NCBI RefSeq assembly: GCF_006345805.1
Contig: NC_042998.1
Span: 82,894,001 to 82,958,000, forward strand
Direction: 5' to 3'
Source: Octopus sinensis
Lineage: Eukaryota
Length of the DNA stretch: 64,000 nucleotides
Each line of letters opens with the position of its first letter. Position 1 is the stretch's first letter. The position numbers were made by a program, and so were the translations under genes. The notes under the pieces are model-generated. The model was not told the DNA's origin, did not search any database, and saw only the letters and a list, made by a program, of their open reading frames with translations. This document shows positions 8,280 through 10,066 of the stretch, one piece after another.

Positions 8280-8780
8280 AACCCCAAAAAGAACAAACCC
8301 AAAGAAACAGCAATGTAAGGACGTGGTACATGTAATATATTAGCAGATGCTCAGGAAAGGAAAGATATATATATATATATCACATGACCGACTCCTTCAC
8401 CTGTACTTCTACCTGTATCATCTACTGCATCTCCTGTTCTCTTTGCCCTTCTCTATACATCAGGCAAATGGGACGCCACTTGGCTGACTGGTTCGCAGAA
8501 CACTTCCAAGACATCCGACTCAGCAATGGCACTTCGGTCTTGTGCCATTTCTACTCTACCAGTCACTCTTTACATCACCTGTCCGTGTTCAGATTGTCCT
8601 TGCACAGGGGCCATCCGGACTCCCGTTTGTGCCACAAACAGGGATTAATCTTCTCTCTTCGCTCCTTTGTGCCACATGGGTTCAACTCTAATCCCCTCGC
8701 CTCTCTTCCCTCACACCTACTTCCTCCCACCCACCTCTCCTCTCTTGCATCGACTTCTACTTGTATTCACTCCTACTCTC
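8280..8780 (+). mobile_element. Penelope-like element fragment (GIY-YIG endonuclease)
   Basis: ORF 8384: FTCTSTCIIYCISCSLCPSLYIRQMGRHLADWFAEH...HF, a Penelope GIY-YIG domain; preceded by a short inverted pLTR-like piece in TA repeats. Confidence 0.85.
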
Positions 8781-8804
8781 CTTCTCTCTTCTGTGGTGGT
8801 GACT

Positions 8805-8970
8805 ATGATAGAAGGTAAACAGCAAAATATTTTGTGCAATAGCATTAGGAAGGGTATCAAGCCATAGAAATATTGCCAATGTAGACAATGGAGTTTGGTA
8901 CAGGCCACTGGCTTGCCTGTTCCTTTCAAATTATCCAACTTACACCAGCATATGGAAAATGTGCTTTGAA
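8805..8970 (+). mobile_element. RTE 3'-end derived repeat
   Basis: GCATTAGGAAGGGTATC...CCAGCATATGGAAAA matches the 3' ends of the RTE fragments in this window. Confidence 0.7.
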
Positions 8971-9002
8971 TAATGAAGAATAATAATTATAATAACAATA
9001 AT

Positions 9003-9165
9003 AGTGTAGTATCTGTTCTTACCAGCCTTATATCTGATACGGTTCGTATTTGGGGCCATCAATATTAAACTGATTTTTTTGAATAAGGTGAAGAGTTAGA
9101 GGCTTCCTCTACCTTTGCCATGGGTTGACCTGGTATTGCAGTACTTCCAGGATTCAGCCCATCTC
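9003..9165 (+). pseudogene. U2: 5'-truncated U2 snRNA-derived sequence
   Basis: AGTGTAGTATCTGTTCTT (branch-point recognition region), ATATCTGATACG, Sm-like ATTTTTTTG and stem-loop IV CCTGGTATTGCAGTACTTCCAGG, all colinear with U2; first ~29 nt absent. Confidence 0.93.
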
Positions 9166-9269
9166 CCACCTAGAAGATATTGAGAGAAAATGCCCTGATA
9201 GAGCGCTGGCTCTCATGGTTTTTAATCAGTGGTGATCGGAGCGCTGGGCTCAATCCTATTGAAACTTCG

Positions 9270-9413
9270 AGGCTTCTTAAGGCAACTGGAAATCCCATGC
9301 ATGTCTTGCAAAAAGCAACCTTATTGGGCACAGCAGACATCTTAAGGAAAGTATTATCTGTCTAAGGTCCTTGTTGTGACTTGACAGATGACTGAAGACA
9401 CTGTGTAATGAAG
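9270..9413 (+). mobile_element. 3' end of an R4/Dong-clade non-LTR retrotransposon with (TAA)n tail
   Basis: Encodes LQKATLLGTADILRKVLSV* (stop 9363-9365), the typical R4/Dong/Rex6 C-terminus; short 3'UTR, then TAA repeats. Confidence 0.85.
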
Positions 9414-9435
9414 TAATAATAATAATAATAATAAT

Positions 9436-9967
9436 GCAGTACCAGGCAGTGGCTCTCATGGCTTCTCATCTTAACTGATTGGAAGTGTTATCATGTACAT
9501 TGTTTTGTTTTGGGTATAAAAAATAGGCTACAGCAAATATTCTGCTCAATAGCACAGATTTGCTTGTCAGTTGTTTGGCCTTAACCAGCTGAGCATGTCC
9601 CTTAGTGGTTGATGATATGTATATCTCTATCATGAGTAGAAGTAGTGGGGGAGCGTCATAGTCATGTGTTGGGAGGAATTCTTTGGGGTGTGGATAATTC
9701 ACCTCTGGAAACATGGGTGTTTCGTTCAGCATCCTTAAACAACCCTTATTTAGGGACCTTTTGAGCAGGATGGGCTACTTCACCTGAAGAAAATTCTAGA
9801 TGAGCCCCACCTGCAAAGTCATGAGCCATCTTGATACATCATGCACATAGGGTTGTGATGTATGTGCCTGGTGTACCCTTCTCAGATGGGTAGTCATGAT
9901 GGGTATACTGGGTTTCATATATTTTACCCCAGTGTCACTTTGATGTCATTCACTGCTCTCTCACCCA
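9436..9967. mobile_element. Non-coding interspersed element flanked by (TAA)n
   Basis: ~530 bp island bounded by AAT repeats; shares TGGCTCTCATGG with the U2-headed element. Confidence 0.6.
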
Positions 9968-9992: not shown

Positions 9993-10066
9993 TAGCACAT
10001 ACCCAAGGCACACAGAGCTGCGCTCGGTAGTGAAGTGAAAGCACGCTATAAAAATAAAACTACTGA
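9993..10066 (+). mobile_element. Short 3'-terminal LINE-like fragment in (TAA)n
   Basis: ~75 bp island with AATAAA followed by a long AAT tract; AAT also upstream. Confidence 0.5.

Follow-up and report, generated by a model that had tools for sequence, protein, structure and literature searches.

The window, that is, the whole 64,000-nucleotide stretch of Octopus sinensis DNA analyzed here, contains between positions 9003 and 9435 a U2 small nuclear RNA (snRNA) sequence followed by the 3' end of a LINE, inside TAA repeats. The locus raises the question of whether this genome harbors a U2-headed, Dong-tailed SINE family or whether the unit arose only once, and how its parts came together. The locus is a decayed, single-copy chimera of three pieces, namely, part of a U2 snRNA, the 5' end of a short element, and a LINE tail, and it was likely assembled by the copying enzyme (reverse transcriptase, RT) of a retroposon. 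It is a chimeric snRNA retrocopy, a known type of genomic accident; a new mobile-element family is rejected.

Organization of the unit and its flanks

The unit is bounded by AAT repeats, as the first-pass annotation had stated. On the left, a decayed (TAA)n tract occupies 8969 to 9002 (TRF: AAT ×11.3, 75% matches, tract called at 8969 to 9003); on the right, (TAA)7 at 9414 to 9435 represents the LINE tail or target tract (TRF: AAT, 7.3 perfect units). All three parts are in one orientation (+), as are the flanking features. Both ends lie inside TAA repeats, and no target-site duplication was found around the unit.

The first piece, at 9003 to 9180, is a 5'-truncated U2 copy. Rfam (RF00004) returned a match at 8983 to 9167 with 98.4 bits (gathering score, 46; E value, 1.5e-18); over the first ~30 positions of the model, it covers the AAT tract and not U2 sequence. 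Alignment with the U2 genes of the same genome places 9003 to 9180 on gene nt 31 to 207 at 84 to 89% identity, in agreement with the earlier description of U2 from about nt 30 to its end, and the copy extends ~10 nt beyond the end of the Rfam model. It differs from the gene majority at 21 of 174 positions (12 of 160 outside CpG), lacks the U2-gene upstream element, and keeps neither the upstream nor the downstream gene flank. An insertion of Keno or of Utopia, whose insertion target site is presumably the U2 gene, into a U2 gene was considered and rejected, as the sequence upstream is a TAA tract and no gene flank lies downstream of U2. Keno is known to target U2 (PMC4494074).

Seven A/G-rich bases follow at 9181 to 9187, where other U2 retrocopies have A-rich extensions; they may be either a decayed pre-U2 3' extension or a non-templated addition. 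The second piece, at 9188 to 9227, matches the first 47 nt of a ~560-bp, TAA-flanked, non-autonomous element with a score of 45, which none of 2000 shuffles equaled (best, 36). This linker begins precisely with short-element nt 1, 7 nt from the 3' end of U2, and in it 14 nt of the short element are swapped for 7 nt resembling LINE sequence ~35 bp downstream. The stretch that is neither U2 nor LINE thus spans 9181 to 9227, or 47 bp. The first-pass annotation had proposed two parts, U2 and a LINE 3' end with UTR, joined by a linker of ~100 bp; both parts were recovered, but the proposed linker turned out to be mostly frameshifted LINE coding sequence, with the short-element 5' end as the remainder, making three parts in total. 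Compared with 2.5 kb of a natural LINE copy, the linker gave no significant match (198 of 500 shuffles were equally good). The possibility that it is the LINE's own 5' end, as in an internally deleted LINE (SIDE), was rejected, since the two longest LINE copies (L160 and L171) start otherwise; their starts have one common sequence, which matches neither the linker nor the short element.

The third piece, at 9228 to 9414, is the 3' end of a putative R4/Dong-type LINE. When 9003 to 9414 was searched against the genome, the best 40 scored of 1727 candidates were the window itself, a match to U2 alone, and 38 matches to the tail alone, these 38 all starting at query positions 222 to 230 with 87 to 90% identity. 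LINE homology begins at 9227/9228, not at ~9300. In longer, broken copies, the upstream sequence translates to RT, CxxC..H..C, and RPDIV..IIDVA..KY motifs, which we take to be RT, a zinc knuckle, and a restriction-like endonuclease (RLE); the RVT_1 match of the LINE copies is weak and below the Pfam cut-off. The part present here consists of the last ~45 codons, with a 7-bp deletion, and a 3' UTR with a 20-bp deletion. Positions 9229 to 9300 translate in frame 2 to VIGALGSI..LRQLEI, a frame shifted by the 7-bp deletion relative to the last codons, which read LQKATLLGTADILRKVLSV in frame 1 with a stop at 9363 to 9365. This peptide had been proposed to be a coding 3' end, which is borne out by its identity at 15 of 19 positions to the C terminus of the full-length RT/RLE protein P0001. 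P0001, a single 1196-aa protein with RVT_1, has R2 proteins as its best relatives of solved structure, and it is 51% identical over 77% of a 205-aa piece. The homolog search returned no named Dong or R4 protein, and Pfam gave no match for the window's two short peptides. A TAA run follows the LINE in 35 of the 38 other tails. This TAA association and the predicted architecture fit an R4/Dong source of the tail. R4/Dong elements have been reported from octopus genomes (accessible text of PMC9115989 and PMC13282606), and TAA repeats lie at the 5' junction of B. mori Dong (accessible text of PMC3774820).

The ~560-bp element is abundant (3743 candidates in the genome search, the best 40 of which were scored) and non-coding; its 5' start is fixed, and TAA runs flank it at either end. 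Rfam at its gathering score gave no match for it in the window, with low-scoring matches only at two other loci (L070 and L074), and ARAGORN found no tRNA at L070. Folding of the element's first 150 nt was no stronger than that of shuffled sequences (z, -0.87), leaving a 5' ribozyme unsupported. The element has the appearance of a non-autonomous partner to an RLE LINE that targets TAA. A genome DNA search and alignment place another copy, without its first 10 nt, at 9434 to 9965, directly after the TAA tail of the LINE; starts at nt 8 to 21 account for 9 of 29 short-element starts. A second copy within 300 bp was present at 8 of 24 loci (L062 to L085), a tandem rate that may be biased, these loci being the best matches to a 5'-end query.

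Stacks of 5' fragments (21 to 68 nt) precede full copies of the short element at L065, L080, and L084, and L067 and L083 look similar by eye (20 to 68 nt overall); several units are present at L065 and L084. These stacks suggest repeated jumps or slippage at the RNA 5' end. At L179 (581 to 670), a nearly full-length LINE copy of the same family, with an internal deletion, is preceded by short-element nt 1 to 77 plus three TAA units; this second case of short element/LINE pairing has no short element behind the LINE. Farther along the window, a third TAA-associated repeat has its 3' end at 9997 to 10066; this repeat is also seen upstream of LINE copies L089, L162, and L163, which makes the tract a hotspot of at least three families.

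Contigs from sequencing runs on 8500 to 9800 are swamped by paralogous repeats. One run (X6), whose organism label and study differ from those of the best-matching runs, has a contig covering 8895 to 9158 with 9 other letters and 20 gap letters, and the junction of the left flank and U2 therefore exists outside this assembly. A contig from run X3 covers 8841 to 9163 with 0 differences; it may come from the source sample and was not counted as independent. Positions 9181 to 9206 are covered in none of the four runs with contigs on 8895 to 9262, a gap that is uninformative on its own, and no contig among those listed bridges the U2-linker or linker-tail junction. Two joints (9003-9513 and 9003-9691) were rejected as empty alleles, their sides being only 22 to 25 letters beside a TAA run, as was a joint in run X9 (9001-9207) as an allele, since it resembles the start of a paralogous short element. 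The run contigs contained no orthologous allele in an empty or intermediate state. The matching runs listed include no RNA run, which says nothing on expression.

U2 copies across the genome

A census of U2 copies was carried out on the 2.72-Gb assembly with a 21-mer from the U2 3' end (at most 2 mismatches), and all 56 sites found were examined. Gene-like flanks were recognized at 27 sites by script and at one more (L137) by eye, giving 28, and the remaining 28 are retrocopies. The gene-like copies (27 or 28) have upstream and downstream flanks in common. The 28 gene sites are scattered over many contigs with three or four flank types, and some genes occur in close pairs (contigs C23, C7, C30, and C6502).

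A retroposon adjoins 13 of the 28 non-gene copies, this locus included, and every junction is individual. For the other twelve, adjoining means within ~30 nt: five lie against one tail type (L108, L132, L147, L148, and L032), three against a second tail type (L116, L140, and L142), three against the 5' start of a complete short retroposon (L104, L117, and L144), and one against a coding LINE end (L120) that we take to be RTE-like. The retroposon start of the third group, which we presume to be a "SINE head," contains no tRNA by ARAGORN at any of its three loci. Junctions vary inside each group, and no pair of the twelve has more than one private change in common. In three members of the first group, the joint lies at nearly the same place in the tail, which hints that one site may be preferred for switching. 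A search for target duplications gave nothing convincing at the twelve, and we infer their single-event origin from abutment and orientation.

Stand-alone U2 retrocopies with only A-rich ends are found as well (e.g., L107, L119, and L135). A common ~20-nt 3' extension past the end of the Rfam model was observed in stand-alone copies L119, L122, L123, L129, L131, L134, L135, and L139. It comprises a short possible hairpin and then an A-rich motif that resembles, without equaling, the present gene flanks; its source may be the 3'-extended precursor RNA of an older gene variant.

Assembly of the three pieces

We give an even chance to an origin in which an RT acquired U2 through an end-to-end template jump at the 5' end of the short element and the LINE tail likely came later. 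Judging from the joint itself, the end-to-end capture of U2 is the likely first step, and for the tail, later arrival is rated slightly ahead of the same event. A TAA-targeting RT would carry out target-primed reverse transcription of the full ~560-bp RNA, jump at the 5' end of this RNA onto the U2 3' end, and terminate at nt 31 of U2. A Dong-type LINE would later insert into the TAA tail of the U2-short-element copy. Finally, a deletion guided by the in-register sequence TGATYGGA (short-element nt 53 to 60, LINE 9233 to 9240; 7 of 8 positions match) would remove the rest of the short element together with most of the LINE. The resulting chimera would not amplify, because copying left behind the U2 promoter, which is located upstream of the gene.

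The joint between the U2 end and short-element nt 1 is arranged as in the jumps of R2 to U12 and tRNA, and the U2 retrocopies at L104, L117, and L144 adjoin the 5' start of a complete short retroposon. In addition, the same short element stands directly after the LINE tail here and after none of the 38 other tails, and short elements are arranged in tandem at the 8 of 24 loci mentioned above. A LINE directly behind a short-element tail was seen in 2 of 36 resolved loci, with L019 and L008 alike by eye. Deletions are common, with two in this tail and others at L013, L028, and L179. Outside CpG, divergence amounts to 7.5% for U2, 8.6% for the short element, and 4.8% for the LINE, a trend that fits a later LINE, although the differences are not significant (Fisher p 0.36 for U2 versus LINE and 0.13 for LINE versus short element). 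Against this sequence of two steps, the required deletion left no direct trace. The TGATYGGA microhomology could equally guide an RT switch in a single event and serves both models alike. Moreover, one insertion would be expected to leave both outer ends in the TAA tract, where they are found.

This last feature also speaks for the strongest competitor, a single insertion, still one-off, with two template switches by a Dong-type RT, to which we give somewhat less than an even chance. From priming at TAA, the enzyme would copy ~190 nt of its own RNA, switch by microhomology to the short-element 5' end, continue to nt 1, and pass on to U2; the acceptor would be either short-element RNA or the DNA strand of a neighboring copy. 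The 21- to 68-nt fragments at L065, L080, and L084 (and, by eye, L067 and L083) indicate that short-element 5' ends do get added at 5' ends, and L179 has nt 1 to 77 before the same LINE family with none behind. However, the TAA units between that fragment and the LINE fit a deletion equally well. The 7-nt patch resembling adjacent LINE sequence suggests back-and-forth switching, and tripartite double-switch chimeras have been described (accessible text of PMC2104539). With an RNA acceptor, the neighboring copy of the same family would be a coincidence, given its absence from the 38 other tails. The local-DNA version would explain why nt 1 to 10 are missing from the right-hand copy, but starts at nt 8 to 21 are common (9 of 29), so the missing 10 nt weigh little. 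That the whole unit stems from one R4/Dong-type reverse transcription, with two switches and U2 captured, is a claim we make a shade more tentatively.

Separate arrivals are improbable. U2 would be a stand-alone retrocopy at the TAA edge, of the kind seen at L107, L119, and L135, and the LINE would have inserted independently into the first 47 nt of the short element with a target duplication of ~35 bp, in line with the overlap of linker and right-hand copy over short-element nt 11 to 47. Yet no such duplication of unique sequence was found at the 38 other LINE copies (~17 of which have misplaced 5' ends because the reference copy carries a deletion), and among 30 other short-element copies, only the ambiguous L080 has one. 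The would-be duplicates also differ at 3 of 21 positions in addition to the 7-nt patch, and no other U2 copy matches the TAA-then-U2 pattern.

Junction counts and known chimeras

The first-pass annotation had favored a SINEU-like family, for which the head/tail layout and the TAA flanks speak. Exact patterns for the TAA-U2, U2 end-short-element start, and linker-tail junctions each gave one match in 2.72 Gb, this locus, and 0 control matches. Each junction thus occurs once only genome-wide, the outcome named beforehand as counting against a family. Similarity searches (1727, 82, and 80 candidates) gave one junction-spanning match in the best 40 scored of each. A LINE tail or short-element start lies within 700 nt downstream of 1 of 56 U2 3' ends, again this locus; the one further match is an internal piece on the opposite strand, 570 nt from a gene. 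There is no common run of diagnostic U2 changes, this copy having at most 2 of its 10 private non-CpG changes in common with any other retrocopy. Exact patterns and the 21-mer (at most 2 mismatches) miss old copies, so that one same-age sister would be found with a probability of 0.53 to 0.79, but missing all of five hidden sisters has a probability of only 0.0004 to 0.023. A U2-headed, Dong-tailed SINE family with this locus as one copy is therefore highly improbable, and at family scale it is refuted for this assembly. The other option raised at first, a one-off template-switch chimera, is supported, except that the direct neighbor of U2 is the 5' end of the separate short element instead of the Dong tail.

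The SINEU families described by Kojima (2015) are crocodilian (SINEU-1/2/3), number about 137 to 7,700 copies of common structure amplified from master copies, and have poly(A) tails and Tx1 partners; that study sets them apart from independent chimeric retrocopies (PMC4494074). Like SINEU, the octopus unit has a U2-derived 5' end, presumably added by template switch, and thus the U1/U2 head of these families. Unlike SINEU, it is one copy, without multi-copy shared junctions, and ends in an RT/RLE LINE 3' part and a (TAA)7 tail instead of poly(A) and a Tx1 partner.

The locus has the marks of a chimeric retrocopy: an snRNA 5' part, a retroposon 3' part in the same orientation, no upstream gene flank, and a unique junction. 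Such snRNA retrocopies are of the kind described for L1, L2, RTE, and R2. Doucet et al. (2015) reported U6-L1, U6-L2, U6-RTE, and U6-SINE chimeras, with platypus U6-L2 chimeras having a 5'-truncated U6 upstream of a short L2 sequence (PMC4476161). As in the portion of that work available, a 5'-truncated snRNA here precedes a short retroposon piece in the same orientation, junctions are individual, and several partner families occur in one genome; in contrast to the U6 chimeras given there, the octopus locus involves U2, an invertebrate, TAA-targeting RLE machinery, and three parts, with no readable target-site duplication. In Drosophila, template jumps by R2 have joined it to U12 snRNA and tRNA (Eickbush & Eickbush 2012, PMC3414825, consulted portion). 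Both cases combine an RLE-type RT with a small RNA on the true 5' end of an element. According to the same portion, the R2 involved is full length and lies in 28S rDNA, the U12 form being multi-copy, whereas the element at this locus is non-autonomous, in TAA repeats, single-copy, and decayed. The tripartite chimeric retroelements of Gogvadze et al. (2007) likewise combine a stable RNA, a short retroposon piece, and a LINE 3' end; in the excerpt at hand, a 14-bp duplication proves one event, whereas the octopus locus is without such a mark and its middle piece is a 5' end (PMC2104539).

The first-pass annotation knew of no description of the head/tail pairing. The literature searched, which did not extend to Repbase and Dfam, yielded no paper in which U2 forms chimeras with Dong elements or in which U2 chimeras come from cephalopods. 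An RLE LINE with a 5' snRNA was already known, namely, R2 with U12 (PMC3414825, consulted portion). The repeat annotation of Octopus vulgaris lists automated "U" and "U-L1" SINE classes, known by name only from the accessible part of that report (PMC13282606).

A single dead chimera has little weight alone. It adds U2, TAA-targeting RLE machinery, and a large invertebrate genome to what is known of snRNA capture by retroposon RTs. The more useful product is the census, in which 13 of 28 non-gene U2 copies adjoin a retroposon, each with its own junction. Such U2-retroposon fusions are regarded as the source material of SINEU heads, and none amplified here, consistent with U2 lacking an internal promoter. 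If the single-event reading is true, the locus would represent a tripartite snRNA chimera in a clade and a phylum for which the literature searched gives no earlier example. Together with the 12 other independent U2-retroposon fusions, it would then mean that several invertebrate LINE machineries repeatedly build SINEU-like heads that never amplify.
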